Positions 22,152 to 42,774 of a stretch of DNA of 64,000 nt are shown here, one piece after another. The position numbers were made by a program, and so were the translations under genes. Origin of the DNA: Nitrospirota bacterium. GTDB taxonomy: Bacteria; Nitrospirota; Thermodesulfovibrionia; Thermodesulfovibrionales; JdFR-85. The DNA lies in contig WFMM01000008.1 in NCBI GenBank assembly GCA_015484595.1, positions 288 through 64,287 on the forward strand. The letters are read 5' to 3'. A model generated the notes under the pieces. The model worked only from the letters and a program-made list of their open reading frames with translations. It had not been told where the DNA came from and ran no database searches. Position 1 is the first letter of the stretch, and each line of letters starts with the position of its first letter.

Positions 22152-22907
22152 TCATAGAGCAACGATACTCCAAAGGAGTTTTGATGCCACAAATAAAAGT
22201 ATCAGGGCAAACATCTGTTTTATCCACTTTGCCTTCATCTTCTCCTTCATCACATAGGCACCTATATTTGCACCCACTATCACCGCAAGGGCTGTTGAAA
22301 GCATAAGGGGCCAGTTGAAATGCCCCTCTGATAGATGCCCTACAAACCCTGAAAAGGATGAAAATATCACCACAAAGGCACTGGTTGCCGCAGCCTTTTT
22401 TGTCGGGTATCCAATGGCAAGCATCAGGGGAACAAAAAGAAATCCACCACCGATACCAAGAAGTCCGGCAATCATGCCGATAAGGAATCCACCTGCACCC
22501 ATCAGTAGCATCCTGAGGCCTATGGAGACCTCCCTTTCGGTATCGGGCTTGTGTGCTGTAAGGAGCATCCTTCCACCTGCAAAACACATGGCAATGGCAA
22601 ACATGAGTATCAGAATCCTTGTTGGAATCATGTCAGTAAGATATGCACCCACAGGTGCACCTATGAAAGAGGACAACACAAGGGGGATTGAGCCCTTTAC
22701 ATCCACCATCTTTGCCCGGAAGTAGACAACCGAGGCAGACACCACGGTGATACCGTTAAGCAAAAGCCCCGTTGGTATCGCCTCGGTCTTGAAGTCGTAT
22801 CCAAACCAGTGAAACACAGGTATGTAAAGCATGGCCCCGCCAAGACCGAGCATGGAAAAGACAAAGGCAAGGCCGAAGATGAGCAGTGAAACAACCACAA
22901 TAGTCAT
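22152..22907 (-). CDS. TauE/SafE-family anion exporter (membrane protein)
   Basis: 251 aa, polytopic, with two repeated halves containing GLGGG/GIGGG motifs. Confidence 0.75.
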   Translation of the reverse strand: MTIVVVSLLIFGLAFVFSMLGLGGAMLYIPVFHWFGYDFKTEAIPTGLLLNGITVVSASVVYFRAKMVDVKGSIPLVLSSFIGAPVGAYLTDMIPTRILILMFAIAMCFAGGRMLLTAHKPDTEREVSIGLRMLLMGAGGFLIGMIAGLLGIGGGFLFVPLMLAIGYPTKKAAATSAFVVIFSSFSGFVGHLSEGHFNWPLMLSTALAVIVGANIGAYVMKEKMKAKWIKQMFALILLFVASKLLWSIVAL

Positions 22908-22933
22908 AATGTTCTCCTCTTATTTATTTTGGT

Positions 22934-23060
22934 CAGGATGTTATTGCCTTTTCACTCATTCTCGCAGGACATCCTGTCCTGCTCCGAAAAACCACACTGA
23001 AGCAGCCATCCAGGCTGCTTCGGGCGAGTGCTGAAGCCGTTCAAAGGCAATAACATCCTG
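22934..23060. other. 127-bp structured element closed by an 18-bp perfect inverted repeat, with inner hairpins
   Basis: caggatgttattgccttt (22934-22951) pairs with aaaggcaataacatcctg (23043-23060). Inner hairpins are gcaggaca-tcc-tgtcctgc and gaagcagcc-atcca-ggctgcttc. Lies between the FmdE-like stop and the TauE start. Confidence 0.7.
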
Positions 23061-23070
23061 TTCCCATACC

Positions 23071-23679
23071 TCACTCTCCATACCCCGAGCAGGGGATGCA
23101 TACCAGTTTATTATCTGTAGTGAGCCTGAGTTTGTTTACAAAGGTAAGTTCCCCACAACTTTCGCACCTCTTTGCCTCAAAGATACCGGATCTCTTCTCA
23201 ACGGGCACCTCCTTTATTTCACCTATCTCAAGGAATTCCTCAACCGGAACAGTCAATATCTTATCCACCAGAGGGTCTGTAATCTCAGGCGGGATGTCCT
23301 GTGGGGGCACTCCCTCCTTACGCCTTTGCACAAAGGGTGAGTTAAGGGCCTTTTCAAAGAAATCCGGCTTTACCGAGACCCTTACCGAGCGGCCTGTTTT
23401 CTGGTCAATCAGGGTAAAGGCAAGTTTGTTGTAGTAGAGTTTCTGGACATTGGACTTACCATAGGTACAGCCCGTGGCGGTCATGATGCCGTCAAGAAAA
23501 CAGCCTGCGGCATGTCCCTTGCCTGTCTCAGAAAGCACAAAGAGTTCCTTGTCCTTGGCCCTTTCCACACCAAGGACCTCCATTGCCTTAAACCCCGCCC
23601 TGAGTCCCATGGGCATTGCAGGACACCTGTGCCCGTGAAACCTCATTGCCACATCAAGGTATTCCCTAAATTCCTTCAT
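23071..23679 (-). CDS. FmdE-domain protein with a C-terminal zinc ribbon
   Basis: The track ORF is trimmed to ATG 23679, which is preceded by GGAGGTG. Contains [16 protein letters not shown] (FmdE signature) and C-terminal CESC...CIPC. Confidence 0.75.
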
Positions 23680-23945
23680 CTCACACCTCCATTTTTTTAA
23701 TATGCTCAGCGAGCGCATTCCCCTGCAGCAAGACCGCAAGGCTCTTCGTTAAACCGGACAAAGACCGACGATATTTTATAATATTTTTTACTATATAATT
23801 ATTTAGTTATATTAAAATAAAAAAATAATAATTAAAAAAATAATAATTAAAATATCCTTTGTTAACCTGACATGCATGTTTAGACATTTAAAATGGCTCT
23901 AAACTTATATATCTGCTTCTTATATAACTCCAAGTAACTGATCTA

Positions 23946-24203
23946 TCAGCAACCCATATCAACACCGTCGTCCCAGGGGTCTTCCTCTTCGGGGTCATCA
24001 TCGGTTTTTTGGGTGGCTGATTTAAGGTCCTCTACTTTTAGCCTCCGGTGATTTTTTATCTTTAAGTGCTCGGTGTCCTGTGTGCTCTGTGAAGGCTGAA
24101 GGATGGTCTTTTTTGTCTGGTTAAAGAGCGACAGGTTTCCCCCTGCAATGGCGTTTGTTGTAAGGAAAAACAAAACTAAGAGTGAAATAGTCAGGGACTT
24201 CAT
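23946..24203 (-). CDS. Small secreted acidic protein, unknown function
   Basis: 85 aa. Signal peptide MKSLTISLLVLFFLTTNAIAG, acidic C-terminal half (DDDPEEEDPWDDGVDMGC). Last gene of the ArsR-headed operon. Confidence 0.45.
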   Translation of the reverse strand: MKSLTISLLVLFFLTTNAIAGGNLSLFNQTKKTILQPSQSTQDTEHLKIKNHRRLKVEDLKSATQKTDDDPEEEDPWDDGVDMGC

Positions 24204-24209
24204 ATTCTA

Positions 24210-24812
24210 TCACCTGCCTTCAGTGACTGGTTTTAGGCCATCGGGCACCTTCTTTGCATTGAGGTTTGCGATGGCCATGATGCCACCCTTAAGGGCGTAT
24301 ACATTATTATAACCCAGGATCCTCAGAGCCGTGGTAACGATTATCGCCCTTGGGCTACTGTGACAGATAATGACCACTGTGCCATCTGTTGGAATCCTGT
24401 CAAGGTTTTTCATTATGTCGGTCATCTGTATCCTCAATGCACCTGTAACACGGGTAAGTGCCTGCTCCTCTGGTGTGCGGACATCAATAAGGGTAATTTT
24501 TTCTCCCTTCATCATTTTTTTAACAAGTGCCTTTGCTGATATCCTGATGTCTCCTTTTTTCTGAACCTCACGGGTCATGAGGGAGAGGAACTCGTCTGCG
24601 TTTTTTGCAACTGCTGCCTTTTCAAGCCTTATCCTGAGGGCAGGATTTTCTGGGTTCTTTGCCAGGGCACTCAGGTAGGCATCCATTGCCTTTGCATACT
24701 TTGCCTGCTGAAAATAGAGGTCTCCCTGTTTTAGAATCTCATCAACAGATGAAGCCACTGCGGGCATTGCCATAACCAGCAGGGCAAATAATATTATAAG
24801 TGACTTTTTCAT
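24210..24812 (-). CDS. Periplasmic TPR and rhodanese-domain protein
   Basis: The track ORF 24210-24905 is trimmed to ATG 24812 (MKKSLIILFALLVMAMPAVASS signal peptide); the upstream extension is repeat R4. Contains a TPR segment and a rhodanese domain with active-site loop CHSSPR. Confidence 0.75.
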   Translation of the reverse strand: MKKSLIILFALLVMAMPAVASSVDEILKQGDLYFQQAKYAKAMDAYLSALAKNPENPALRIRLEKAAVAKNADEFLSLMTREVQKKGDIRISAKALVKKMMKGEKITLIDVRTPEEQALTRVTGALRIQMTDIMKNLDRIPTDGTVVIICHSSPRAIIVTTALRILGYNNVYALKGGIMAIANLNAKKVPDGLKPVTEGR

Positions 24813-24833
24813 CTTGGTCCTCCTTGAAGATTT

Positions 24834-24894
24834 AACCACAGAGGGCACAGAGTAATAAATAAAAACTCTTTTTTTCTCTTTGTTCTCTGTGGTT
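24834..24894. repeat. Repeat family R4 hairpin (AACCACAGAG ... CTCTGTGGTT)
   Basis: aaccacagagggcacagagtaataaataaaaactctttttttctctttgttctctgtggtt. Intercistronic. Confidence 0.85.
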
Positions 24895-24901
24895 TTAAAT
24901 T

Positions 24902-25135
24902 TCATCCGCCAAGCAGAGACTTGATTTTCTCAAACGGCGGTAAAGGCTTTCCTGCATGAAGTAGTTTGCCATCGATTACAAGTCCTGGAGTGCTCATGGT
25001 GTATTTCATTATCTCCGCCATGTCGGTGACCTTCTCAACAGTGGCGTTAATGCCAAGTTCCTTTATTGCCTGCTCTACTCTTCTTTTCATCTCCTCACAG
25101 TTTGGGCAACCTGGACCCAAAACCTTGATTTCCAT
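24902..25135 (-). CDS. Small thioredoxin-fold protein (redox-active disulfide protein 2 type)
   Basis: The track ORF is trimmed to ATG 25135, preceded by GAGGAGG. MEIKVLGPGCPNCEEMKRRV with a CPNC motif, 77 aa. Confidence 0.85.
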   Translation of the reverse strand: MEIKVLGPGCPNCEEMKRRVEQAIKELGINATVEKVTDMAEIMKYTMSTPGLVIDGKLLHAGKPLPPFEKIKSLLGG

Positions 25136-25165
25136 ATTTAACCTCCTCGATTTTAAAATATTTAG

Positions 25166-25243
25166 AACCACAGAGAACACAGAGTACCCAGAGCACACAG
25201 AGTAATAAACAAAAACTCTTTTTTCTCTGTGTCCTCTGTGGTT
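25166..25243. repeat. Repeat family R4 hairpin, second copy
   Basis: aaccacagagaacacagagtacccagagcacacagagtaataaacaaaaactcttttttctctgtgtcctctgtggtt. Confidence 0.85.
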
Positions 25244-25247
25244 TAGT

Positions 25248-26204
25248 CTATAGTATTGCATTAAACAGATAGCCAACGCTTATTATAGTTAAAGTCATTA
25301 TGCCAATAAATACTCCGAGCATCTGGGGTTTTAGGACCTTCCTCAGGATTATCATCTCTGGAAGAGACAGTGCTGTCACAGCCATCATAAAGGCAAGCAC
25401 CGTTCCCATGCTAAGGCCCTTCTCCATCAGCGCATAGACAATGGGTATCACCCCTGCTGCGTTTGAATAAAGGGGCACTCCAAGAAGCACTGCCGCAGGC
25501 ACAGCCAGTGGGTTCCCTGGCCCTGCAATCCTTGTAAGAAAATCCTCAGGCACATATCCGTGTATAAATCCTCCGATACCAATGGCAATGAGGATAAAAA
25601 GCCAGACCCTCCGCAGGATGTCCTTAGTGTTCCACTTTGCATACTCGAGCCTCTCGCGAAAACCCTGCTTTATAACATCACTGCCCTGCCCTGTCCTTAT
25701 CTTATAGACATACTCCTCTATCCACTTTTCAAACCCGAGCTTTCCGATTATCATACCACCGAATATTGCCACCAATAGCCCAGCTCCGATATAAATGGCC
25801 GTAACCTTCCAGCCAAAAAGCCCATAAAGTAAAACCACAGCTATCTCGTTTACCATTGGAGAGGAGATAAGAAAAGAAAATGTCACACCAAGGGGCACGC
25901 CTGCTTCAACAAAGCCAATAAAAAGAGGAACTGCCGAGCAGGAACAAAAGGGTGTTACCACACCAAGAAGTGCGGCAAGGATATTTCCGATAAAGAGCCT
26001 TCGATGGCTTAGAATCTTCTTTGTCCTCTCTGGTGGGAAAAAACTCCTCACAAAGGAGACGACAAATATCACCACCGCAAGAAGCAGAAATATCTTTAAC
26101 GTGTCGTAAACAAAAAAGTGCAGGGCATCTGCAAGCTTTGTCTGAGGTGAAAGCCCAAAAAGTTTAAAGACCACCGTGTCTGCTATCCATTTAAGCATTC
26201 TCAA
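25248..26204 (-). CDS. COG0701-type permease with a vicinal-Cys motif (ArsP-like permease family)
   Basis: 318 aa, polytopic. TPFCSCSAVPLF motif. Downstream of arsR and upstream of the thioredoxin-fold gene, a common arrangement. Confidence 0.75.
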   Translation of the reverse strand: MRMLKWIADTVVFKLFGLSPQTKLADALHFFVYDTLKIFLLLAVVIFVVSFVRSFFPPERTKKILSHRRLFIGNILAALLGVVTPFCSCSAVPLFIGFVEAGVPLGVTFSFLISSPMVNEIAVVLLYGLFGWKVTAIYIGAGLLVAIFGGMIIGKLGFEKWIEEYVYKIRTGQGSDVIKQGFRERLEYAKWNTKDILRRVWLFILIAIGIGGFIHGYVPEDFLTRIAGPGNPLAVPAAVLLGVPLYSNAAGVIPIVYALMEKGLSMGTVLAFMMAVTALSLPEMIILRKVLKPQMLGVFIGIMTLTIISVGYLFNAIL

Positions 26205-26298
26205 ATCATCCTTTTAATTGTGTTCTTTTAAATTATCTATATTACTATATAGTAATAGAGTAGTGTTTGTCAAGAATGATGTTACCTTACGAAGATGT

Positions 26299-26634
26299 TT
26301 ATCTCCCCTTTTGGGTTACATTGGAGAGTGCTTTGGCAAGCTCAGCAGACTTAAGGAGTTCTTTCTGAACCATCTTTTCTACCTTATCAAGGATTTCAAA
26401 TACCACCTTATCTTTAATCTTATAATATGAGCTTACACCTACCTTTCTGAACTCCACTATACCCGTCTGCCTTAAAAGGGAAAGGTGCTTTGAAACATTT
26501 GCCTGCTCTTCGCCAAGTATGGGAAGCATCTCACAGACACAACGCTCTCCTTCTCTCAGGAGTTCTACTATCTTAAGCCTCGTGGGTTGTCCCAGTGCCT
26601 TCAGGATATCTGCCTTTCTCTGCAGGATGTCCAT
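26299..26634 (-). CDS. ArsR/SmtB-family metalloregulator
   Basis: 111 aa. LGQPTRLKIVELL HTH region and a CVCE metal/metalloid-binding motif. Confidence 0.88.
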   Translation of the reverse strand: MDILQRKADILKALGQPTRLKIVELLREGERCVCEMLPILGEEQANVSKHLSLLRQTGIVEFRKVGVSSYYKIKDKVVFEILDKVEKMVQKELLKSAELAKALSNVTQKGR

Positions 26635-26723
26635 AAAGCCTCCTCAAACAAGACTTACCCCTCTACCAGTTAATTTATTTGGTACACAACAGGTGTTTTT
26701 ATATTATAATATTTAATGTAAAA

Positions 26724-28433
26724 ATGACCAATAATTCATTAAAGAAGAGATTAATACTCGTTACCGCCCTTGTCATTTCTTTGCTATTAATTAGCAAGCT
26801 TACTCTCCATTCTGCCCAGAGACCAGTCCGCATAGGTATAGCCTCCATGATTACACCTGTTGATGCGGTGAAATACTACCAGGAGATTGTTGATTATGTG
26901 GGTGAAAGGCTTGGTATGCCTGTTGAAATGGTATTAAGAAGGACCTATGATGAGATGGATAAGTTACTTGAGAAGGGAAAGGTGGACATTGCCTTTATCT
27001 GCTCTGCACCCTATGTTAAAAACCGCAGGGAGTTCGGCGTTGAACTCCTGGTGGCTCCCGAGGTAAAGGGCAGAGCCTTTTACAAGTCTTACATCATCGT
27101 TCATAAAGACAGCCCCTTTAAAAGGTTTGAAGACCTTAAGGGACATACCTTTGCATTTACTGATCCCAAGTCAAACTCGGGCAGGCTCTATCCTGTATAC
27201 AGGCTTGCTCAAAAGGGGCTGAGACCAGAAGATTTCTTCAAAAAATACATCTACAGTTACAGTCATAACAAATCGGTTGAACTGGTTGCAAAGAGGATAG
27301 TTGACGGTGCTGCAGTTGAAAGCCTGGTTTATGAATATATGAAAAAACAGGGAAACCCCTATGTGCAGGAGACAAGAATCATAGAGAAATCCCCTGATTT
27401 TGGTATTCCCCCAGTGGTTGTATCAACAGGTGTATCCCTTTTTGTGAAGGAAAAGATAAAGGAGATACTTCTTAACATGCACAGGACAGCAGAGGGTAAG
27501 AGGATACTTTCTGCAATGAACATAGACAGGTTTGTTGAGGTTCCTGACTCTAATTATGACTCCATAAGGGAGATGGAAAGGGTAGTTAGCAAATTACGCC
27601 CACCTTCAAAAGAACAAAAAAAGGATGACTCCATCATATACTTTGGTGTAATCCCGAGGGATAACCCCCGTATAACCTACGAGAAGTATCAACCTCTGAT
27701 AGATTACCTGACCGAGACCACAGGGCACCGTTTTGAACTGAAACTTAAAAAGAGTTATGAGGAAACAGTGGTCTCTCTTGGTAATGGTGAGACAGATGTG
27801 GCAATACTTGACCCCCTTACATATCTTGAAGCGCATGCCAGATATGGGGCAGTCTGTATATTAAAGTCTGTAAACTCCAAGGGCGAACCCTTTTACTATT
27901 CCATGATTATCACAAAAAAAGACAGGCCTTTAAAGTCCCTCTCAGAGCTTAAGGGTAAGAGCTTTGCCTTTTCAGCTATTAAATCGACCGCTGGAAACCT
28001 GATACCCCGATATCTGCTTGCCGAGGCAGGCATACATCTTGGAGACCTGGGGATGTATAAAAACTTCTATTATTATGAAACAGTTGTAAAGAGGGTTTTA
28101 AGTGGCGAGTTTGATGCAGGCGCTGTAAGGGATGCAGTTGCCAACAAATACATGCCCCTTGGGATAAAGGTGATTGCCCGGTCTGAGCCTATTCCTACTG
28201 GCCCTGTGGTAATAGGCCCGAGAACATCCTTTGTTACAGGCGAGATGATAAAGTCAGCCTTGATCAATATAAACAAGACCAAAAGGGGGCAGCAGGTTCT
28301 TAAAAAACTTGACCCTGAATTCTGGGGTGGTTTTGTTGAGGCAAGGGATTCAGATTATCAGGGGATAAGGGATATGATTAACAATGTGCCAAAGACCTGC
28401 GGGATGGGATGTCATCCAAAGATAAAACTATAG
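26724..28433 (+). CDS. Secreted protein with two tandem PhnD-type (phosphonate/oxyanion) substrate-binding domains
   Basis: The track ORF is trimmed to ATG 26724 (MTNNSLKKRLILVTALVISLLLISK signal/anchor). Two homologous halves each carry F(A)FTDPKSNSGRLYP / FAFSAIKSTAGNLIPRY motifs. The C-terminus reads TCGMGCHPKIKL. Confidence 0.75.
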   Translation: MTNNSLKKRLILVTALVISLLLISKLTLHSAQRPVRIGIASMITPVDAVKYYQEIVDYVGERLGMPVEMVLRRTYDEMDKLLEKGKVDIAFICSAPYVKNRREFGVELLVAPEVKGRAFYKSYIIVHKDSPFKRFEDLKGHTFAFTDPKSNSGRLYPVYRLAQKGLRPEDFFKKYIYSYSHNKSVELVAKRIVDGAAVESLVYEYMKKQGNPYVQETRIIEKSPDFGIPPVVVSTGVSLFVKEKIKEILLNMHRTAEGKRILSAMNIDRFVEVPDSNYDSIREMERVVSKLRPPSKEQKKDDSIIYFGVIPRDNPRITYEKYQPLIDYLTETTGHRFELKLKKSYEETVVSLGNGETDVAILDPLTYLEAHARYGAVCILKSVNSKGEPFYYSMIITKKDRPLKSLSELKGKSFAFSAIKSTAGNLIPRYLLAEAGIHLGDLGMYKNFYYYETVVKRVLSGEFDAGAVRDAVANKYMPLGIKVIARSEPIPTGPVVIGPRTSFVTGEMIKSALININKTKRGQQVLKKLDPEFWGGFVEARDSDYQGIRDMINNVPKTCGMGCHPKIKL

Positions 28434-29890
28434 TTACGGGCTTTTTAAGCAGAATACCACTACAGCAGAAGTTTATCCTTATCACTTCAGTAGCCATTGT
28501 GGTGCTGATGAGTATTATAGGATACCTTGTGACCATGAGGGAGCGTCAGATAATGTATGCAGACATTGAGCGGCAAGGCAGGGTGTTTGCCGAGACCCTT
28601 GCAATACCTGTAATCAACGACCTTATTTACGAACGGATGGGGCTTGTGGAGGAGGGTGGCCTTATTGACAACTACATTCGGGGCATATTCAATAAAAAGG
28701 AGTTGAACCTTCTTTATCTTGCAGTGCTTGACGAAGATGGAAGGGTCATCTCTCATAATGACTTTAGAGAATACGGAAAGGTTTATACTGACCCCCTGAC
28801 CAGACATGCCCTCAGGGCAAACACCACGGTGGTGCAGAAGTTTCACAGCAGCAAGACAGGCCACGATGCCCTTGATTTTGCCACTCCTTTATCAATCGGG
28901 AAAAAACGATGGGGAACCCTCAAGTTTGCTATCTCCCTTGAAGAGGTGGAGCATGAGATTTCAAATATGGTAAAAGGAATACTGTTCTTCACACTTGTGG
29001 TCCTTGTCGTGGGATTTTTTATAATCATAATTCTCAGTAGAAGGTTTATAAGACCCATAACCTATCTTGCCCGAACCATGGAGCGTGCTGGCTCAGGTGA
29101 CCTTGATGTGAAGGTTCACATAAAGGGTAATGACGAGCTTGCCCTTTTAGGACAGAGTTTTAACAACATGATAGAGCGGATAAAGCAGGCAAACCTTGAA
29201 CTAAAAAGGACACATGAAAAGCTACTTCAATCAGAAAAACTGGCATCCATTGGTATCCTCGCCTCTGGCGTTGCCCACGAGATTAACAACCCCCTTGGCG
29301 GAATGTTCAACTGTGTGGATATGCTTGAACTGATGGGTGAAAATGAGGAATTAAGACAGAAGTATCTCCACCTTCTTAAAGATGGGTTAAACAGGATTGA
29401 ATCAATCGTGGGGAAACTCCTCTGGATGTCAAGAACGGGAAGCCGTAATCCAGAGGTGGTCGATGTAAAAGCCCTGCTTCAGGACATCTATAAGTTCGTT
29501 GAGTACAGGTTAAGAAATAAAGACATAAGATACAGCGTAGATATAGAAGATGGCCTGACCATAATAATAGACCCCCACGATTTTCAACAGATTATGCTTA
29601 ATCTTATAATCAATGCAATCCATGCCATCAACAATACGGGAGAGCTTACGATAAAGGGCTACAGCGAGGACGATTACAAGATTATCACTGTTACGGACAC
29701 TGGAGAGGGAATTGACAGGGAGAATCTTCCTAAGATATTTGACCCCTTCTTTACCACAAAGCAGCCTGGTGAGGGCACAGGACTTGGACTCTGGTTGACT
29801 TACGAGATTGTTAAAAACTATAATGGCGAAATCACTGTAGAAAGCCAAAAGGGAGTTGGAACCACCTTTACGCTTAAGTTTAAGAGGTGA
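28409..29890 (+). CDS. Sensor histidine kinase (periplasmic Cache-like domain, HAMP, HisKA, HATPase)
   Basis: 493 aa. TM1, a roughly 150-aa extracytoplasmic domain, TM2, HAMP, H-box VAHEINNPL, GTGLGLWL. Overlaps the binding-protein gene by 25 nt. Confidence 0.88.
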   Translation: MSSKDKTIVTGFLSRIPLQQKFILITSVAIVVLMSIIGYLVTMRERQIMYADIERQGRVFAETLAIPVINDLIYERMGLVEEGGLIDNYIRGIFNKKELNLLYLAVLDEDGRVISHNDFREYGKVYTDPLTRHALRANTTVVQKFHSSKTGHDALDFATPLSIGKKRWGTLKFAISLEEVEHEISNMVKGILFFTLVVLVVGFFIIIILSRRFIRPITYLARTMERAGSGDLDVKVHIKGNDELALLGQSFNNMIERIKQANLELKRTHEKLLQSEKLASIGILASGVAHEINNPLGGMFNCVDMLELMGENEELRQKYLHLLKDGLNRIESIVGKLLWMSRTGSRNPEVVDVKALLQDIYKFVEYRLRNKDIRYSVDIEDGLTIIIDPHDFQQIMLNLIINAIHAINNTGELTIKGYSEDDYKIITVTDTGEGIDRENLPKIFDPFFTTKQPGEGTGLGLWLTYEIVKNYNGEITVESQKGVGTTFTLKFKR

Positions 29891-31245
29891 TGATGGATAA
29901 AAAGTCAGTTCTCATAATTGAAGATGAAAGGATAATGCGCATAACCATCGAGGATGCCCTTAAGGCTAAGGGTTATGAGGTAAAATCCTTTGAAAGGGCA
30001 TCGGATGGGCTGAAGGCATACAGCGAAGAGCCATTTGATATCGTGCTTACCGATGTAAGACTGCCTGACATAAACGGTATGGAGGTGCTAAGGAGGATTA
30101 AGGAGATAGATGATTCCTCTATGGTTATCATAATGACCGCCTTTGGCACCATAAAGGATGCGGTTGAGGCAATGAAGATGGGGGCCTTTGACTACATAAC
30201 CAAGCCATTCAGCCTTGATGAACTCTCATTGATTATCAGCAGAGCGGCAGAGGTAAAAAAGATGCAGGATGAAAACCTGAGACTTAAAAAGGCCATCTCC
30301 CGTTGCTATTGTTACCCAAACATTATTGGCGAAAGCGATGCAATGAAGAATGTATTCAGGATGATAGAGAGGCTTTCGCAATCGGACTCAACGGTTTTAA
30401 TACTTGGTGAAAGCGGAACTGGAAAGGAGCTGATAGCATCCACGATACATTATCAGGGAAAGAGGAAGGATGCACCCTTTGTGATTGTAAACTGCGGGGC
30501 ATTGCCAGAAAACCTTATCGAAAGCGAGCTCTTTGGTTACGAAAAGGGGGCCTTTACAGGTGCCACCCGCCGAAAACCCGGCCGTTTTGAGCTTGCAGAC
30601 GGCGGAACCATCTTTCTTGACGAGGTCGGGGAATTGCCCCCATCAGTGCAGGTCAAGCTCTTGAGGGTGCTTCAGGATGGAACCTTTGAACGACTTGGTG
30701 GAACAGAGACCATAAAGGTGGATGTAAGGGTAATTGCTGCAACCAATCGAGACCTTGAAAGGGAGGTAAGGGAGGGAAACTTCAGAGAAGACCTCTACTA
30801 CCGTCTTGCCGTAATACCCCTGACACTTCCACCACTCAGGGAAAGACGAGAGGACATCCCTCTTTTGATTGAGCACTTTCTTCAGCGTTGTAACAGCCGC
30901 CTTGGTAAACAGATTGTCTTTTCAAAGGATGCAGTGGAGGCACTCATGGAGTATCCTTTCCCTGGAAATGTCAGAGAGCTTGAAAACATCGTTGAGCGTA
31001 TGGTGACCCTCTGTGAATCAGACAGGGTAAAACGGGAAGACCTCCCTCAGCATGTGCTTAAAAAGGGACAGAAAAAAGACACTCCTGCCCAGCCACTTAC
31101 AAAGGTGGCTCAGGAAGCTGAAAAACAATACATTATCAGGGTTCTTAAACAGACAGGTGGTAACCGAAGCCGTGCTGCCTCAGTGCTTGGCATTAGCCGC
31201 AAAACCCTCTGGGAAAAGATGAGACAGTACGGCATAAATAACTGA
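29887..31245 (+). CDS. Sigma-54-dependent response regulator (NtrC/Fis family)
   Basis: 452 aa. Receiver domain, AAA+ domain with GESGTGKE and GAFTGA, C-terminal Fis HTH. Confidence 0.92.
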
Positions 31246-31329
31246 ATGAAGAAACCTGCGGCCTTACTGTCATTAAAGGCTCCTCAGACTCTCATACCAC
31301 CACATCTCCGAGGCAGTTAAGTACAGGAT

Positions 31330-31448: not shown

Positions 31449-31511
31449 TCGCCTGATTTTTTATCCTGAAAGTTAGATTTGATATATGAATGATATATTT
31501 TCTGGAGGCAA

Positions 31512-33202: not shown

Positions 33203-33250
33203 TCTTCAGGTAATCCTCCGATAATCTTTCCTTCCTATAATAGGCATACC

Positions 33251-34639: not shown

Positions 34640-34655
34640 ACACGGAGGCAAAGGC

Positions 34656-35751: not shown

Positions 35752-37228
35752 TGAGGACCATACTTAAAAGACTCACTGACAATCCCCTTATGATGGTATT
35801 TGCCGTGGTGGTTATCGCATTTAGCGGCATATTTGCAGCCACCCACATGCCTGTTGACCTCTTTCCCAACCTTGATATCCCTGTGGTCAATATCATCACC
35901 CACTACCCCGGGGCATCCCCTGAGGAGATGGAACTCCTGATAAGCAGGCCCGTGGAGGATGTCATGAGGGGGCTTCAGGGGGTAAAGCGTGTCTCATCCA
36001 CATCAGCACTCGGGGTCTCGGAGGTTACGGTGGAGTTTACATGGGGCACTACTGTGAGGGATGCAAGGCAGTTGGTTCAGGCAGGTCTTTCCAGGCTGAA
36101 TGGACTCCTGCCACAGGGGGTTGTCCCAAGGATGGAAAACATCGGCACCACCCTGCAGGAGGTAACAGGCTATGTGGTGGTGTTACCATCTATGGCACGG
36201 ATACTGAGCGCCTCATATCCCTTGCAGACAGGGTTGAGGGGTTAATGTCCAGAGAGCCTTCCTTATCAAACATCGTTAATAATACAAAGATAAAGGCAGG
36301 GGAGGTGGTGGTGAGGCTTAGATATCCCGACCTTGCCCGTTATGGGGTAAGCACAGAGGAGGTCTTTGATACCCTTGAGTCTGCATTTACCGGTCTTGAG
36401 GCCACGGGGATAATAAGACAGCAGGAGACGGTGGGCATTGTGGTGAAACTCAGGGGGATTGACACTCACAGGCCAGAGGATATCCGCAGGATCCCCATCA
36501 ATACAGCCACAGGGGAGGTAATACCCCTTGACAGGGTGGCCGATGTCAACCTGATACACACACCTTCAACCATCACAAGGCTCAACGGTCAGAGGGAGAT
36601 AACCCTTGTGGCAGAGGTGGAGGGCTCAATCCCCCGTGTGGTTTCAAGGTTGAGGGAGAAGTTCAGCCAGTTGAAAATCCCTGAGGGCTACTCCATTGAG
36701 TTTACAGGCCAGTTCAGGGTGCTCACAAGGACACTCTATGAACTAGTAATGGTGGTTGTGGCTGCTGTGGTTCTTATCTACCTCATAATGGCGATGCAGT
36801 TTCGCTCATTTCTCCAGCCCCTGATGATACTGACAACCATCCCACTGTCACTCGTTGGTGCGGCAGTCGGGCTTTTTATTACACATAAAGGCCCTGATGT
36901 ATCTGTTGGTATGGGCATTATCACACTTGTGGGTATTGCCGTAAACAATGCCATTATACTCGTGGATTATGCAAACAGTGAGATAAGGCGAGGAAGCCGC
37001 CCCGAGGAAGCACTCATTAAGGCATCCTCTGTGAGGCTAAGGCCCATACTGATGACAGCACTTACCACCATCTTTGCACTCATACCCATAGCCATAGGCA
37101 CAACCACTGGGTCCAATATCTTTCAGTCCTTTGCGATTACCGTAATTGGCGGGCTCCTGACCGGCACCCTCTCCACCCTCCTTGTGGTGCCTGTTTTGAT
37201 AAGTATCCTGAATAATGACAAAAACTGA
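35751..37228 (+). pseudogene. RND efflux pump (AcrB/CzcA superfamily) with a large internal deletion and a frame change
   Basis: ORF 35751-36245 gives TM1 and the first roughly 140 aa of an RND pump. ORF 36041-37228 gives the last roughly 350 aa (second periplasmic loop end and TM8-12). The total of about 490 codons compares with about 1,000-1,050 for the family. The frames differ at about 36171-36195. Confidence 0.8.
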
Positions 37229-37520
37229 AGAAACCTGCTTAACAGGGCCTCGGTATAATGCCACCTGCCGCAAGACAAGAGATGTCCGGAGGCAGAAATG
37301 AAAGTGAAGCTCCCCGGCCAAAGGTCGGGGCTTCCAATGCAAGGAAAATGAAAATTTTTATTATTATTCTTGCCTTCATCCCCGACTGTCGGGGTCCCCA
37401 AAAAGTCATAAACTTTTTGGGGTGGAGGTGTCGGGGCTTTCGGCAAGGGTCATTGTAACCGCTTTCCGTTAGTTAGAGATTTCCAGAGGACAGCCTGATT
37501 GCTCGCTGCACAATCAAACC

Positions 37521-37538
37521 TGTTACCCTTCCGTAACA
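37521..37538 (+). promoter_or_regulatory. Candidate enhancer (UAS) site 1: TGTTAC-N6-GTAACA
   Basis: Perfect 6+6 inverted repeat tgttac ccttcc gtaaca, about 210 bp upstream of the predicted sigma-54 transcription start. Confidence 0.5.
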
Positions 37539-37647: not shown

Positions 37648-37665
37648 TGTTACTTTATCGTAACA
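37648..37665 (+). promoter_or_regulatory. Candidate enhancer (UAS) site 2: TGTTAC-N6-GTAACA
   Basis: Perfect 6+6 inverted repeat tgttac tttatc gtaaca. It is 127 bp centre-to-centre from site 1 and about 85 bp upstream of the predicted start. I found no other copy of this palindrome in the window. Confidence 0.5.
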
Positions 37666-37715: not shown

Positions 37716-37731
37716 TGGCACATCAATTGCT
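37716..37731 (+). promoter_or_regulatory. Sigma-54 (RpoN) -24/-12 promoter
   Basis: cTGGCACatcaaTTGCTt matches the TGGCAC-N5-TTGCW consensus exactly. It is on the plus strand, about 250 bp upstream of the Fe-S subunit start codon. Confidence 0.75.
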
Positions 37732-37983: not shown

Positions 37984-38760
37984 ATGGCTGTAAACGAGAT
38001 CGTGAGAATGTATGAAGACCTCAATCGGGCTTTAAAGAAACCGGTTGAGAAGAGGTCATGGGTTATGGTCATTGATGTTAGGCGTTGTGTTGGTGACCAT
38101 GCCTGCGCCGTAAGTTGTATGGCAGAAAATGTCTGCCCACCTGGGACATCCTACCGCTGGGTTTTTGAAACCGAATATCAGAATTATCCAAAACTTGACA
38201 GGTTTTTTATGCCTGCTAACTGCCAGCACTGTGACAACCCACCCTGTCTTAAGGCTGCAAACAGACACAAAAGGGGTGCAATCACAAAAAGGCCTGACGG
38301 AATCGTGGTCTTTGACTATGAAAAACTCTCTCGTAGTTCTTCAGCCATGGATGCTGCAAAGAAGGCATGCCCCTACTATGCAATAGTTGATGACAGGGGC
38401 GACTACTATACAGAAAACACCCCAAAGCTCGAGCCCTATGAGACCAGGACATTCTTTGAATATGACAGAAAACTAAACAGAAAAAAGACAAAGGGAACTA
38501 TCCGTAAATGCCACTTCTGCCTTCACAGGCTTGAAAGCGGGATGATACCTGCCTGTGTGTCCACCTGTATCGGAAGGGCCATGTACTTTGGTGACCTTAA
38601 TGATCCCAGGTCACTGGTGTCTGAACTTATCAGGAAGGAAAAGACGCTCAGGCTGAAAGAGGCAGAGGGAACAAAACCGAGGGTTTACTACATTGGTTTT
38701 AAGGACAGGGCAAACATATCAATTAGCACACCGGCTACATGCCAGGTATGCCATCAATAA
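37984..38760 (+). CDS. Fe-S (ferredoxin-type) electron-transfer subunit of a molybdopterin oxidoreductase; variant of the DmsB/PsrB/TtrB family
   Basis: 258 aa. Cys groups CVGDHACAVSC, CQHCDNPPC, ..ACPYYA, CHFC...PACVSTC, then MYFGDLNDP. Ends in CQVCHQ. RBS AAGGAGG. Confidence 0.85.
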   Translation: MAVNEIVRMYEDLNRALKKPVEKRSWVMVIDVRRCVGDHACAVSCMAENVCPPGTSYRWVFETEYQNYPKLDRFFMPANCQHCDNPPCLKAANRHKRGAITKRPDGIVVFDYEKLSRSSSAMDAAKKACPYYAIVDDRGDYYTENTPKLEPYETRTFFEYDRKLNRKKTKGTIRKCHFCLHRLESGMIPACVSTCIGRAMYFGDLNDPRSLVSELIRKEKTLRLKEAEGTKPRVYYIGFKDRANISISTPATCQVCHQ

Positions 38761-38773
38761 ATAGGAGGTGTGT

Positions 38774-41700
38774 ATGGCTGAAAAGGACAAATCCTGTAAG
38801 ATTTCCGAGATGCTTGAATCAATACCTCAAAAAGAGGTCACCAGAAGGGGGCTTCTGAAGGCAGGTGCACTGCTTGGAAGTTCTGCCTTCCTGATGGGAA
38901 AGGTGGAGAAGGCCTTTGGACTGCTTGCCTCTGCTGAGGCTGCAACAGGTGGTGACTATCCACTTGCAAAGGCAGAAAATGTTATCTATTCTGTCTGCCT
39001 GCAGTGCCATACAGCCTGCCCTATAAAGGTGAAAATACTGGATGGCGTTGCAGTAAAGATAGACGGCAATCCCTACTCTGCCCAGAACATGATACCCAAC
39101 CTCAAGCAGAAGACCTCTCCCCATGTGGCAGCAAAGATTGATGCAAAGATCTGTCCCAAGGGGCAAGCTGGAGTTCAGAGCCTTTATGACCCCTACAGGA
39201 TAGTGAAGGTTCTTAAGAGGAAGGGCCCCAGGGGCTCAAACAAGTGGGAGGTCATCTCCTTTGACCAGGCAATTGATGAGATTGTAAACGGTGGTTATCT
39301 ATTTAAACACATCGGAGAAAACCGTTATGTGCCAGGACTCAAGGATATCTATGCCCTTCGTGACCCCAAGCTCTCAAAGGCCATGGCAAAGGATGCAAAG
39401 GCAGTGGCAAAGGGCAAGATGTCGGTAAGTGACTTTAAGAAGAAGTACAAAAACCACCTTGATGTGCTCATAGACCCCAACCACCCCGACCTTGGGCCAA
39501 AGAACAACCAGTTTGTGCTTCAGTTTGGCCGAATTGAGCACGGCAGAAAGGAGCTATGGAAGAGGTTTCTTGCAGGTGGCTTTGGCTCTGTGAATTACTA
39601 CGAACATACAACCATCTGTGAGCAGTCCCACCACATTGCCTACAAGGAGGCAACCCGTCAGCCCAAGGGTGGTAAGTGGGGAAAACCAAAATCAGAGCAC
39701 ATGAAACCAGATGCACTTAACGCCGAGTTTGCCATCTATTTCGGAACAGGTTTTGTTGAAGCAAACTTTGGCCCACCAAACATGGCTGAGAAGGTTACAG
39801 AGGGACTCCAGACAGGAAGGCTCAAGGTATGTGTTGTAGACCCCAGGATGTCCAAGTCTGCTGCAAAGGCATGGAAGTGGTTGCCTGTAAAGCCAGGCAC
39901 TGACGCTGCACTGATAATGGGAATGATAAGGTGGATAATTGAAAACAAACGGTATGATGAAAGATTCCTCTCAGCAGCAAACAAGGCTGCAGCAAAGGCT
40001 GCCGGTGAGTCATCCTGGACCAATGCAGCTCATCTTGTAAAGATTGAAAAGGATGGCCCTGGAGCACTGCTGAGGGCAAAGGACATCGGAATGGGTGGAG
40101 ATGAGTTTGTGGTGGTCAAAAACGGAGAGCCTGTGGTTGTTGGAAAGGATGCAGTTACAGGCGACCTTGACTACTCTGGCACCATAAAGGGCATCAGGGT
40201 TAAAACAGCCTTCAGGATACTGAAGGACGAGGCATTCTCAAAGAGCCTCTCCGAGTGGTCAGAGATATGCGGCATACCTGAAAACGACATCATAGATGTG
40301 GCAAGGGAGTTTACCGCTCATGGTAAGAAGGCTGCTGCAGATATGTATCGTGGAGCAGTTCAGCACACAAATGGCTACTATAATGGTCAGGCCGTTATTG
40401 CCCTTAACCTGCTTATTGGAAGCATTGACCACAAGGGTGGCCTCAGTAAGGGTGGTGGTCACTGGCATGAAGACGGTGGAAAACTGAAGAAACCCTTTTA
40501 CCTCAAGAAACTACACCCGAACAAGCTCCATGCCTTCGGGCACAAGCTCACAAGGGAGAAATCAAGATACGAGGACTCCACACTGTTTAAGAGAGATGGT
40601 GGCTATCCTGCAAGACGGCCATGGTTCCCATTTACTGGTAATGTATATCAGGAGATCCTGCCCTCTGCTGCCGATGGATACCCCTATCCAATCAAGGCAC
40701 TCTGGATACACAAAGGCACCCCTGCCCTTTCCATACCTGCTGCCAATGAGCAGGCAAGGATACTGGCAGACCCAAATATCATACCCCTTGTGTTTGCAAC
40801 AGACATAGTGATTGGCGATACCACCATGTATGCTGATTATATCTTCCCCGATACGGCGATATGGGAGCGCTGGGGAACTCCTCATACCAGCCCTGATGTG
40901 TTACAGGTCTCATCAAAGTTCCGCCAGCCCACCATAACGCCACTTACAGAGGTGGTGGAGGTGTTTGGTGAGAAACAGCACTGCTCGATGGAGGCAGTGA
41001 TGTTTGCCATTGCCGAGCGGCTCAAACTTCCTGGTTTTGGTAAAAATGGATTCGGAAACGGATACGACCTTACCCGTCCTGAAGACTGGTACCTCAAACT
41101 GGCAGCCAATCTTGCCTGGGGCGACAAGCCTGGTCAGGAAGTGCCTGATGCCTCAAGGGATGAGATAAAACTCTTCATGAGGGCTCGAAGGCACATGGCA
41201 AAGACCGTGTTTGACCCTGAAAGGTGGGAAAGGGCTGCTGGAAAGGAGAACTGGCGGAAGGTGATTTATCTTCTTAACCGTGGTGGAAGATGGGAAGACT
41301 GGAAGGATGACTTCCTTGGCTCAGGCATGCAGGTGCACAGATTTGGTAAACAGTTTAACATCTATGCAGAGCATGTGGCACTTCAGAGACACTCACTTAC
41401 AGGAAAGCGTTTCTCAGGCATAGCTATTTACGAGCCTCCAAAGGATGCAGCAGGAAGGGTGATTGACGACAGTGGATACCCGCTTCAGCTCATCACATAC
41501 AAGGACATCCTTGGTGGACAGTCAAGGACACTACCAACAGACTACTGGCTCAGTTCAATACTGCCAGAAAACTACATACTGATCAACACAGAGACTGCTG
41601 CAAAACTTGGATTCAAGGACGGAGACAAAGCAAAGATAATATCTGCTTCCTGTAGAGACGGGAAATGGCATCTTCCCAATCGTGGAACTAAGGGCGTAAT

Positions 41701-41956
41701 CGGAAAGATAAAGACAGTGGAAGGTATGAGACCAGGTGTTGTGGCGGTTTCATGGCATTACGGTCACTGGGGCTATGGTGCCTCTGATACTGTGATTGAT
41801 GGTAAGGTGATAAAGGGCGATCCAAGAAGGGCAACAGGCCTCTGCCCTAATGCAGTATTGAGGGTAGACCCTGCACTTGGAAATGCCTGTATGACAGACC
41901 CCATTGGTGGCTCTTCATCTTTCTATGATACAAAGGTGAAACTGCTCAAGGCATAA
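38774..41956 (+). CDS. Tat-exported molybdopterin (bis-PGD) oxidoreductase catalytic subunit of about 1,060 aa, Ttr/Psr/Arr-like, substrate unknown
   Basis: The track ORF starts at GTG 38768; ATG 38774 has better AGGAGG spacing. Twin-arginine signal VTRRGLLKAGALLGSSAFLMG, FS0 motif CLQCHTAC...CPKG, candidate Mo-ligand Cys in HTTICEQSHH. Continuous ORF with no in-frame TGA. Confidence 0.85.
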   Translation: MAEKDKSCKISEMLESIPQKEVTRRGLLKAGALLGSSAFLMGKVEKAFGLLASAEAATGGDYPLAKAENVIYSVCLQCHTACPIKVKILDGVAVKIDGNPYSAQNMIPNLKQKTSPHVAAKIDAKICPKGQAGVQSLYDPYRIVKVLKRKGPRGSNKWEVISFDQAIDEIVNGGYLFKHIGENRYVPGLKDIYALRDPKLSKAMAKDAKAVAKGKMSVSDFKKKYKNHLDVLIDPNHPDLGPKNNQFVLQFGRIEHGRKELWKRFLAGGFGSVNYYEHTTICEQSHHIAYKEATRQPKGGKWGKPKSEHMKPDALNAEFAIYFGTGFVEANFGPPNMAEKVTEGLQTGRLKVCVVDPRMSKSAAKAWKWLPVKPGTDAALIMGMIRWIIENKRYDERFLSAANKAAAKAAGESSWTNAAHLVKIEKDGPGALLRAKDIGMGGDEFVVVKNGEPVVVGKDAVTGDLDYSGTIKGIRVKTAFRILKDEAFSKSLSEWSEICGIPENDIIDVAREFTAHGKKAAADMYRGAVQHTNGYYNGQAVIALNLLIGSIDHKGGLSKGGGHWHEDGGKLKKPFYLKKLHPNKLHAFGHKLTREKSRYEDSTLFKRDGGYPARRPWFPFTGNVYQEILPSAADGYPYPIKALWIHKGTPALSIPAANEQARILADPNIIPLVFATDIVIGDTTMYADYIFPDTAIWERWGTPHTSPDVLQVSSKFRQPTITPLTEVVEVFGEKQHCSMEAVMFAIAERLKLPGFGKNGFGNGYDLTRPEDWYLKLAANLAWGDKPGQEVPDASRDEIKLFMRARRHMAKTVFDPERWERAAGKENWRKVIYLLNRGGRWEDWKDDFLGSGMQVHRFGKQFNIYAEHVALQRHSLTGKRFSGIAIYEPPKDAAGRVIDDSGYPLQLITYKDILGGQSRTLPTDYWLSSILPENYILINTETAAKLGFKDGDKAKIISASCRDGKWHLPNRGTKGVIGKIKTVEGMRPGVVAVSWHYGHWGYGASDTVIDGKVIKGDPRRATGLCPNAVLRVDPALGNACMTDPIGGSSSFYDTKVKLLKA

Positions 41957-41968
41957 AAAACACAATAA

Positions 41969-42008
41969 CAGAGAGAGGGTAATCCTTTGCCCTCTCTCTG
42001 TTAAATTT
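41969..42008 (+). terminator. Strong hairpin / intrinsic terminator after the Mo-enzyme gene
   Basis: cagagagaggg-taatcctttg-ccctctctctg (perfect 11-bp stem, 41969-41979 / 41990-42000), followed by ttaaattt. Confidence 0.6.
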
Positions 42009-42407
42009 ATGCAAACTTTGAAGGAGGACCTTAACATTAACATACTGGTTCTTGATGACGAGGCTTCAATTGTATCGACCCTTTTGCAATACCTTCATAA
42101 GAGAGGTTACGATATTGTTGGCACTACGAATCCTGATCTTGCTGAGTCCATAATACTTACAGGCTGTGTGGACTTCTTACTGCTTGATATAAACCTCGGG
42201 TGCACCACAGGCATTGAACTTTACAGAAGGGTAAAGGAAAAGGGCTTTAAAGGAAAGGTGCTTTTTATCACTGCCTATGACATAGGAGATTATCAGGAAG
42301 AACTGAATGCCATTGGGGTAAACCATGTCATTCAAAAACCCTTTCAATTATATACAGTGGTTGAAATGATACAGAAGATCGCCAGTAAGGAGGTTAAACA
42401 GGGTTAG
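42009..42407 (+). CDS. Stand-alone response-regulator receiver domain (CheY-like)
   Basis: 132 aa. ILVLDDE acidic pocket, phospho-acceptor in LLLDINL, conserved T (FITAY) and K (QKPF). The start is uncertain: ATG 42009 has no SD, and a strong AAGGAGG lies inside codons 5-7. Confidence 0.75.
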   Translation: MQTLKEDLNINILVLDDEASIVSTLLQYLHKRGYDIVGTTNPDLAESIILTGCVDFLLLDINLGCTTGIELYRRVKEKGFKGKVLFITAYDIGDYQEELNAIGVNHVIQKPFQLYTVVEMIQKIASKEVKQG

Positions 42408-42441: not shown

Positions 42442-42774
42442 ATGGAGACATCCGTTGCTTTTTCACAGAGGTTAAAGGAGACTAAAAAATTGAAGACAAC
42501 CCTCGTTGTTAACGAAACAGTTATACCCCTTAACGAGTTTGTACAGACCTATATTGGTAATGTATTAAGGGCCATGGTCTTGAGCCTCGGTTTTGAGGCA
42601 GAGAGGGTGCATCTCTTTATAGAATCAGGAGATATAAAGATATATGCTGATGATGAACCGGTCCCCCTGAGAAAGGACTTTGTAAAACTCCTTTTAGAAA
42701 GCACCATTAAGGGAGTGCTTTCGCCACTTAAAGGAATCTTCTGGCTTGAGAGAATAACCATAATGACCGAGTAA
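42442..42774 (+). CDS. Hypothetical 110-aa protein (no family recognised)
   Basis: An ORF with plausible codon usage and no TM or signal sequence. Follows the receiver gene after a 34-nt gap. Confidence 0.4.
   Translation: METSVAFSQRLKETKKLKTTLVVNETVIPLNEFVQTYIGNVLRAMVLSLGFEAERVHLFIESGDIKIYADDEPVPLRKDFVKLLLESTIKGVLSPLKGIFWLERITIMTE

Follow-up and report, generated by a model that had tools for sequence, protein, structure and literature searches.

A probable Ttr-like arsenate reductase without a membrane anchor, encoded behind an ArrX-type sensor module in a Nitrospirota genome

Arsenate reduction is found among relatives of tetrathionate reductase (Ttr) as well as in the Arr enzymes. Known Ttr-like As(V) reductases include PAE1265 of Pyrobaculum aerophilum and the Ttr homologue of Anaeromyxobacter sp. 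PSR-1, and Melioribacter roseus carries an arsRPCB-arrTSR-ttr locus whose ttrA gene (MROS_1076) is induced by arsenate. The substrate pocket of Arr, Arx and the Ttr-like Arr enzymes contains a Gly-Arg pair (R165 in ArrA) that true Ttr lacks (Degré et al. 2026, PMC12949373), and true Ttr has a twin-arginine translocation (Tat) signal on both its A and B subunits (Duval 2008; Degré 2026). XSR modules, each made of a periplasmic sensor (X), a kinase (S) and a response regulator (R), control aio and arx operons too; ArrX binds arsenate, AioX binds arsenite, and none of AioX, ArxX and ArrX binds thiosulfate or tetrathionate (PMC5908839). Here we describe a two-gene unit, B and A, and its XSR module in a 64,000-nucleotide (nt) stretch of DNA from a Thermodesulfovibrio-like Nitrospirota bacterium (GCA_015484595.1, contig WFMM01000008.1, positions 288 to 64,287), hereafter the window. 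B and A probably form a soluble, anchor-less, three-cluster 'Ttr-like' (non-Arr) periplasmic arsenate reductase under XSR and sigma-54 control. The unit is thus a variant of a kind already described, and our account of it is largely a re-annotation. Its principal genes are as follows.

26679..28433, + strand: X, tandem PhnD-fold binding protein of the periplasm (start probably ATG 26724)
28409..29890, + strand: S, sensor histidine kinase, sCache_3_2-HAMP-HisKA-HATPase (Pfam)
29887..31245, + strand: R, sigma-54-dependent response regulator with receiver, AAA+ sigma-54 activator and Fis-type helix-turn-helix domains (Pfam, NCBIfam)
37984..38760, + strand: B, iron-sulfur (FeS) electron-transfer subunit, 258 amino acids (aa), Fer4_11
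38774..41956, + strand: A, molybdenum/tungsten-bis(pyranopterin guanine dinucleotide) catalytic subunit, 1,060 aa, predicted to be Tat-exported

The N-terminal domain of X (aa 49–300) is of the ArrX/AioX type, and the C-terminal domain (aa 322–566) is divergent. In a phmmer search of the PDB, the N-domain matched ArrX best (6x6b, E 1.5e-50), followed by AioX (6e-46 to 7e-44), PtxB (3.5e-20) and PhnD (3.9e-14). Six of the seven AioX/ArrX pocket residues (Tyr88, Cys106, Tyr131, Ser161, Ser163 and His192) are identical in X, and the seventh, Asp210, is Glu; the pocket thus reads Y-C-Y-S-S-H-E where AioX and ArrX have Y-C-Y-S-S-H-D. The C-domain has the pocket YDYSAYR, followed by a Cys-rich tail (CGMGCH). 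Tandem X proteins of 561–608 aa occur in Nitrospirota-type relatives and single-domain forms in most other lineages. By NCBIfam the protein would be named PhnD, its 284 bits being above the cutoff of 261. By homology and pocket residues, however, the N-domain is a predicted arsenic-oxyanion sensor of the ArrX/AioX type. We also considered tetrathionate sensing of the TtrS type by the PhnD-like domain and rejected it, with 22% identity over a fragment and no pocket residue in common with TtrS.

The sensor module is linked to the enzyme genes well beyond this genome. For the comparison of gene neighborhoods, open reading frames (ORFs) were called and clustered in 81 non-redundant orthologous loci; two clusters (8 and 34) proved to be antisense shadow ORFs of high-GC genomes and were dismissed. 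Two or more of the X, S and R genes are encoded at 31 of the 48 loci that have at least 5.5 kb of upstream DNA, to which this count was limited, and in most of these 48 loci the module immediately precedes the pair. A kinase of the same architecture as S adjoins X in orthologous loci too, and R is the immediate upstream neighbor of the B gene in L001, L002, L005 and others. In Deferrisoma camini and in a Nitrospirota metagenome-assembled genome (MAG), X-S-R stands immediately before B-A. All 31 family-linked X proteins score better against ArrX than against AioX, the pocket Cys is kept in 26 of 30, and the signalling-loop region of X has the ArrX length. An earlier, first-pass annotation of the window, made from the DNA letters without database searches, had placed the pair downstream of a PhnD-type sensor module and judged its substrate not assignable. 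The module is indeed there, at 26679–31245, but it is more than a neighbor: a 6.2-kb insertion now separates it from the pair, and since it is of the arsenic-oxyanion sensor type it is the key to a substrate that can after all be inferred. The same annotation had proposed comparing orthologous neighborhoods; X-S-R and ars genes do recur there with B-A, but the adjacency to complex I genes that is seen in the window does not.

Despite the insertion, the promoter region of the pair is intact and has the layout expected of such a module.

37522..37537, + strand: putative upstream activator site 1, palindrome GTTACccttccGTAAC, 179 bp upstream of the sigma-54 element
37649..37664, + strand: putative upstream activator site 2, palindrome GTTACtttatcGTAAC, located 52 bp before the sigma-54 element
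37716..37731, + strand: sigma-54 -24/-12 promoter TGGCACatcaaTTGCT, with no second match in the window (chance expectation 0.07)

The unit was described at first pass as sigma-54-driven, and the uniqueness of this element in the window bears that out. It aligns with TGGCAC/TTGC elements in four relatives used for promoter and hairpin comparison (L002, L005, L010 and L012). Exact matches to GTTAC-N6-GTAAC number two in the window, both upstream of this sigma-54 element. Among related loci, 13 from several phyla have a pair of the same palindrome just ahead of B. The window palindromes share a 16-bp geometry with the footprinted AioR site GTTCGGATTTCCGAAC (PMC5335332).

The catalytic subunit carries a further line of evidence. 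Its ORF extends from a GTG at 38768 to 41956, and we place the start at the ATG at 38774 because GGAGG precedes it by 7 nt and an identical 1,060-aa protein (P0001) is in the database; this trims the earlier figure of 1,062 aa, and the approximate size given then stands. A has Molybdop_Fe4S4, Molybdopterin and Molydop_binding domains. The further features read from the letters at first pass also hold: a Tat motif (TRRGLLK), an FS0 motif with a 44-residue spacer (C77-x2-C80-x3-C84-x44-C129), and a likely Mo ligand in HTTIC284EQSHH, whose counterpart in Shewanella ArrA is the Mo-ligand Cys region HSSVCAEAHK. The motif region of A aligns with RGRY...HSSVCAEAHK of ArrA, with the pocket pair G254-R255 aligned to ArrA R165. 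This Gly-Arg pair is present in the window A and in all 74 other family sequences that were aligned with it, whereas TtrA has Asn-Thr at this position. The closest PDB sequence match of A is ArrA (6cz7_A), as is the closest fold match (Foldseek, with an AlphaFold model of mean predicted local distance difference test (pLDDT) 70). Among NCBIfam models TtrA (NF011567) ranked first, at 514 bits against an equivalog cutoff of 1750, with PhsA, DmsA and ArrA much lower; the ArrA model (NF041714) gave 130 bits, short of its equivalog cutoff of 1600. As a side observation, a SelB selenocysteine elongation factor is encoded at 3665–5563 on the − strand. The organism therefore uses selenocysteine, and A nonetheless uses Cys.

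Proteins 55–92% identical to A are encoded in 393 species-representative genomes, with 92% at the best locus. The family spans at least ten phyla, and includes Nitrospirota, Desulfobacterota, Calditrichota, Bacteroidota, Chloroflexota, Campylobacterota, Planctomycetota and one archaeal MAG. In neighbor-joining (NJ) trees of catalytic subunits it forms a tight clade distant from true TtrA, and ArrA is only a distant match. A shares 30% identity with the annotated TtrA of a ttrRS-ttrBCA cluster on a Klebsiella plasmid (L086). Assignment to the Ttr/Psr/Arr group on size and B-then-A gene order, made at first pass, is supported. More remote relatives show other arrangements. Two proteins about 44% identical to A (P0136 at L087 and P0144 at L089) are encoded in the order A-B-TorD-like chaperone, with ArrX-like sensors and the Gly-Arg motif; at L087 an MtrB/PioB porin and multihaem cytochromes adjoin, and the enzyme there may be extracellular or of the AnrA type. 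A profile search of the sister clade returned no cultured or characterized names. A Methanoperedens relative (P0123, L088; 52% identical) has the order X-S-R-TatA-B-NrfD-A-chaperone.

Subunit B explains how the enzyme could do without an anchor. It lies 13 nt before A, and its nearest solved chains are PsrB (2vpw_B, E 2e-33) and ArrB (6cz7_B, E 4e-29). The N-terminus, MAVNEIVRMYEDL, has no Tat signal, whereas true TtrB has SKRQFL. First-pass annotation called B a 258-aa ferredoxin with four Cys groups; the 258-aa ORF with its Fer4_11 domain stands, but B lacks group III Cys 1–3 as well as group II Cys 4, and has Asp in place of group I Cys 2. In the standard DmsB/NarH assignment, FS4, the distal cluster near the quinol site of the anchor, is ligated by group III Cys 1–3 and group II Cys 4. 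B is thus predicted to hold three clusters, with the distal FS4 ligands gone and one proximal-cluster Cys replaced by Asp. No homologues of NrfD-type, TorD/NarJ-type or porin proteins were found in the 64-kb window by tblastn and hidden Markov model searches, and the earlier statement that the pair has no membrane anchor, cytochrome subunit or TorD-type chaperone holds for this region of the genome.

Across the 81 orthologous loci, an NrfD gene (PF03916) stands between B and A, in the order ttrBCA, in 36; the closer relatives of the window pair have none. We compared the Cys groups of B at 29 loci with NrfD and 34 without an anchor, and the two sets separate completely. All 16 canonical Cys are kept in every one of the 29 NrfD-associated B proteins, and group III Cys 1–3 are missing from every one of the 34 others, 28 of which lack group II Cys 4 too. 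Group I Cys 2 is additionally Asp in 17 anchor-less B proteins, the window's included, and the proximal cluster is predicted to be Asp-ligated in the Nitrospirota branch. The substitutes for the lost Cys vary by sub-branch (FVV, LFV, ND-V, LxA), and anchor-less forms are interspersed with anchored ones on the NJ tree, which suggests that the anchor was lost several times independently. It had been raised at first pass that orthologous loci might carry an anchor that was simply displaced here. Orthologous loci do carry one, but because the anchor-facing FeS cluster has been deleted from B, the anchor appears genuinely lost; judged by the ligands of B, its absence here is evolved and not an assembly gap. 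We conclude that the enzyme is a predicted soluble AB heterodimer with an electron chain ending at FS3, and, since there is no quinol-oxidizing NrfD subunit, the A+B enzyme itself would not be coupled to the quinone pool. The operon itself does not encode an electron donor. An octahaem c-type cytochrome with eight CxxCH motifs (Multi-haem_cyto) is encoded at 59044–60261 on the − strand, past the nuo operon and 17 kb from the pair; it is a conceivable electron partner, without a link to the pair.

Genes associated with arsenic surround this enzyme in several genomes. In the window they form a single block upstream of X.

22152..26634, − strand: conserved upstream block encoding TauE, FmdE, an 85-aa protein, a tetratricopeptide repeat (TPR)-rhodanese, an ArsE-type thioredoxin, an ArsP_1 permease and ArsR/SmtB (Pfam, NCBIfam)

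The 85-aa protein is secreted and acidic, the periplasmic TPR-rhodanese has a C-x4-R loop (CHSSPR), and ArsR/SmtB has a CVCE motif. The identical block, in identical order, adjoins X-S-R-B-A in L002–L004. The block thereby places a sulfurtransferase in an arsenic context. ArsC, Acr3, ArsD, ArsA and an ArsM-like gene lie alongside the Deferrisoma camini locus, and ArsR and ArsP alongside that of the Nitrospirota MAG. Genes for OprO/P-like porins (β-barrels of 320–430 aa) occur in 15 loci (L033, L034, L036, L043, L045, L046, L049, L054–L056, L059, L060, L070, L074 and L076), directly upstream of B except in L033 and L074, where they lie downstream of A; one passes the Pfam Porin_O_P threshold (30.9 against 20.9 bits). 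Such porins fit the uptake of a phosphate analogue. A 'second FeS protein' that seemed to lie upstream of B in some loci was a single-linkage clustering artefact and consists of these porins. Farther afield, a B-C-A enzyme 37% identical to the window's and with the same motifs lies within an arsRDABC island on a conjugative IncFII plasmid of Citrobacter arsenatis LY-1 (L085, NZ_CP037863, 28794–33598), with B annotated as 'DsrO' and A as 'molybdopterin-dependent oxidoreductase'. Matches of the same 37% identity occur on plasmids of C. freundii, Enterobacter ludwigii, Salmonella and E. coli.

The reading as an arsenate reductase follows from the ArrX-type sensor, its linkage to the enzyme genes, the AioR-type palindromes, the Gly-Arg motif, the lack of true-Ttr features and the precedent of Ttr-like arsenate reductases in the literature. 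Several points weigh against it. X of Deferrisoma camini (L001, 5190–6071) and of L036, L041, L052 and L070 has Gly for the pocket Cys and Lys for the Asp, and scores much lower against ArrX; these variants may have another ligand specificity. ArrX binds phosphate as well as arsenate, and its specificity is not fixed by the pocket residues alone (PMC5908839). Membership in the Ttr-like arsenate reductase class rests on likeness to PAE1265, the PSR-1 homologue and MROS_1076 by their published descriptions and not on sequence co-clustering, and M. roseus was not among the top 120 matches when a Melioribacteraceae orthologue was the query. The authors of the M. roseus study moreover preferred a Psr-type enzyme as its main arsenate reductase. 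The rhodanese, TauE and thioredoxin of the upstream block fit sulfur chemistry equally well. Lastly, we assigned the lost ligands of B to FS4 by the textbook DmsB/NarH scheme, which we assume to apply here, and not from a structure of B itself.

Three other functions deserve weighing, beginning with the same enzyme run in the Arx direction, as an anaerobic arsenite oxidase that passes electrons through B to a periplasmic cytochrome. The control of aio and arx operons by XSR modules would suit it, as would the small c-type cytochrome genes found after A in nine related loci (from Campylobacterota, Calditrichota, Chloroflexota and one Nitrospiraceae MAG). We nonetheless regard it as unlikely, given that the linked X proteins all lie nearer the arsenate-binding ArrX than the arsenite-binding AioX and have its loop length, that the hosts are mostly strict anaerobic reducers, and that the Ttr-like enzymes studied to date reduce arsenate. 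Arx and Arr enzymes have the signature motifs XGRGWG and (R/K)GRY, respectively, and the window motif is neither. A second alternative is an enzyme of sulfur compounds, whether a tetrathionate, thiosulfate or polysulfide reductase or one acting in sulfur disproportionation. TtrA is the top NCBIfam model, the ancestral gene order is B-C-A, and a rhodanese, TauE and a thioredoxin are adjacent, with a rhodanese directly upstream of B in Chloroflexota loci. Names and labels of many carrier MAGs hint at hydrothermal or subsurface sources, and Ttr-type proteins are abundant in sulfur disproportionators according to the literature. The TtrA score, however, is under a third of its cutoff, and A is 30% identical to true TtrA; a Tat signal is missing from B where true Ttr has one on both subunits; the Gly-Arg motif is present; and the regulators are ArrX-type and not TtrSR. 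Every test for true Ttr that we applied to A and B came out negative, and several disproportionator 'Ttr' enzymes are themselves counted as potential As(V) reductases (Degré et al. 2026, PMC12949373). A sulfur enzyme therefore seems to us improbable.

Reduction of some other group 15/16 oxyanion, that is antimonate (AnrA-like), selenate (SrdA-like) or thioarsenate, has a similarly small chance of being correct, AnrA and SrdA being weighed here by description only. According to the literature, SrdA falls within the TtrA superclade and the DMSO reductase family includes antimonate reductases. Different ligands are hinted at by the X proteins with the Gly/Lys pocket and by the second, divergent domain of the window X, and the sister clade has ArrX-like sensors beside MtrAB-like porin-cytochrome genes. 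Set against this, the ars context and the OprP-like porins are better suited to arsenate, which is an analogue of phosphate, than to Sb(OH)6- or selenate. The antimonite oxidase NaoABC was rejected as a relative, being NapA-like with a Rieske subunit.

If the pair is an arsenate reductase, as we think probable, the following sequence of events may be proposed. Arsenate in the periplasm would be bound by the N-domain of X, which would signal to the kinase S, and S would phosphorylate R. R would then act on the two GTTAC-N6-GTAAC sites to activate sigma-54 transcription of B and A, with a hairpin after A permitting partial read-through into the two genes that follow, for a receiver and a 110-aa protein. 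B would be exported piggy-back on A. Electrons would enter at FS3, now terminal, from a carrier in the periplasm, for which a c-type cytochrome is the most plausible candidate, and pass by way of FS2, the Asp-ligated FS1 and FS0 to Mo, where As(V) would be reduced to As(III). The As(III) would be dealt with by the adjacent ArsR-controlled genes. A broader conjecture joins these elements: there would have been a repeated switch from a quinol-coupled arsenate reductase to a soluble enzyme on the cytochrome pool of sulfate- and sulfur-reducers, and the substrate of this sub-branch would possibly be thioarsenate or another As-S species. The thioarsenate idea stems from the TPR-rhodanese, which is periplasmic and conserved, from the two pockets of the tandem sensor and from a habitat that, judged from MAG labels only, is possibly sulfidic. 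We consider this joint conjecture rather doubtful.

The 6.2-kb insertion between R and the promoter (31246–37450) is unique to this genome. It has no counterpart in the closest relative (L005), where B-A immediately follows X-S-R. Its genes are as follows.

31814–33202: DedA-PAP2 fusion
33251–34639: outer-membrane efflux protein
34578–35069 and 34948–35751: membrane-fusion protein, over two ORFs
35751–36245: resistance-nodulation-division (RND) pump, N-terminal piece (AcrB positions 7–144)
36041–37228: RND pump, C-terminal piece (AcrB positions 671–1018)

The insertion looks like a decayed efflux operon. We found no convincing flanking repeats that would mark it as a mobile element. A short stretch at 37260–37450, past the broken RND gene and ahead of the promoter, has repeated inverted segments that contain GTCGGGG (ccccgactgtcggggtcccc, ggtgtcggggctttcggc and aaaggtcggggcttcc).

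Downstream of A, a hairpin and two small genes precede the complex I operon.

41966..42003, + strand: strong hairpin immediately behind the stop codon of A; stem of 17 bp, -29 kcal/mol, z -8.5
42009..42407, + strand: stand-alone receiver-domain protein, 132 aa (Response_reg)
42442..42774, + strand: 110-aa accessory protein, downstream of A in eight species loci counting the window

At first pass, an 11-bp-stem hairpin at 41969–42000 was taken to close the unit. Its stem is in fact 17 bp, it is followed by AAAUUUAUG with no clean T-tract, the terminator scan did not call it, and conserved accessory genes come after it, with the next start codon (42009) 5 nt beyond. Strong hairpins of unrelated sequence stand at the same place after A in all four relatives checked, and the hairpin is therefore a conserved feature. 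Lying between the structural and the accessory genes, it is probably a partial, attenuating terminator or a stabilizer of the mRNA 3′ end, and less likely to end the operon cleanly. The genes listed next at first pass, for an orphan receiver and a 110-aa unknown protein, are both present, but they are not incidental, since both recur downstream of A in related loci; in L002, L008 and L010 a homologous receiver comes right behind A. For the 110-aa protein there is one match, a weak one, to the C-terminal region of MobB-fusion proteins (NF011062, E 1e-8); the protein belongs to no Pfam family, and its structure model (pLDDT 65) gave no Foldseek match with E < 0.05. FmdE, ModE-N-like and MoeA-like proteins often accompany the receiver and 110-aa genes in related loci, and the 110-aa protein is possibly a cofactor-maturation factor. 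The nuo genes begin at 42986, so the pair does lie upstream of a complex I operon as first noted; we take this adjacency to be coincidental because it is not conserved in relatives.

Arsenate respiration in genomes and metagenomes is usually followed by arrA alone, and proteins of the A family are annotated as 'molybdopterin oxidoreductase' or 'tetrathionate reductase', with their sensor as 'phosphonate-binding protein'. If these enzymes do reduce arsenate, arrA surveys would underestimate the potential for arsenic mobilization, and MAG labels suggest that this would matter in subsurface and hydrothermal settings. The most notable results are the strict co-loss of anchor and distal cluster and the conservation across phyla of the architecture of activator sites and sigma-54 promoter. 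Since the anchor is absent in exactly those loci where B has lost the distal cluster, the pattern provides a simple sequence rule that separates quinol-coupled from soluble complexes of this type.

The window unit resembles several known systems in part. With true TtrBCA/TtrSR, as in Salmonella and on the Klebsiella plasmid, it shares the order of B before A, a long FS0 spacer, a length of ~1,000–1,060 aa, a Cys ligand and a Tat signal on A. True TtrA, however, has HGAYCGLAYR where the window has HTTICEQSHH, lacks the Gly-Arg motif and is 30% identical to A. True TtrB has a Tat signal and 16 Cys and is accompanied by TtrC, none of which applies to the window. The sensor domain of TtrS has no ArrX pocket residue, and TtrSR involves no sigma-54 control. 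ArrAB of Shewanella sp. ANA-3 (6CZ7) is likewise a soluble periplasmic AB enzyme with no dedicated anchor, a signal-less B and Arg/His around the Cys ligand. It differs in its order (A-B), in the length of ArrA (814 against 1,060 aa) and in sequence (~18% identity), and ArrB keeps Cys in the aligned group III region from which those of the window B are absent; ArrB of 6CZ7 holds four clusters. The Citrobacter arsenatis B-C-A enzyme has the HTxICExSHH and Gly-Arg motifs and an arsenic-resistance island as its setting, but it has a membrane subunit, a Tat signal on B and 16 Cys, lacks an XSR module and falls outside the window clade. FdhAB of Desulfovibrio (1H0H, 6SDR), a periplasmic Mo/W enzyme with no membrane subunit and a three-cluster β subunit, reduces periplasmic cytochrome c. 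Its chains are distant matches of the window B, and it provides a functional analogy only, being of another catalytic family and acting on another substrate.

In its regulation the unit is closest to AioXSR, ArxXSR and ArrXSR, with which it shares a periplasmic PhnD-fold sensor with the Y-C-Y-S-S-H-D pocket (ending in E here), a kinase, an AtoC-type sigma-54 regulator, a sigma-54 promoter and a 16-bp palindromic activator site. It differs from them in the tandem X with its divergent second pocket, in a Ttr-like enzyme as target and in the 6.2-kb insertion before the promoter. In its enzyme it is most like PAE1265, the PSR-1 homologue and MROS_1076, which also have a Ttr-type catalytic subunit apart from true Ttr and Arr and carry the Gly-Arg motif; in M. 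roseus, moreover, ars genes are followed by a PhnD-like protein, a kinase, a regulator and the enzyme genes. Those enzymes are described as three-subunit and membrane-anchored, whereas the window pair has neither NrfD nor the distal FeS cluster.

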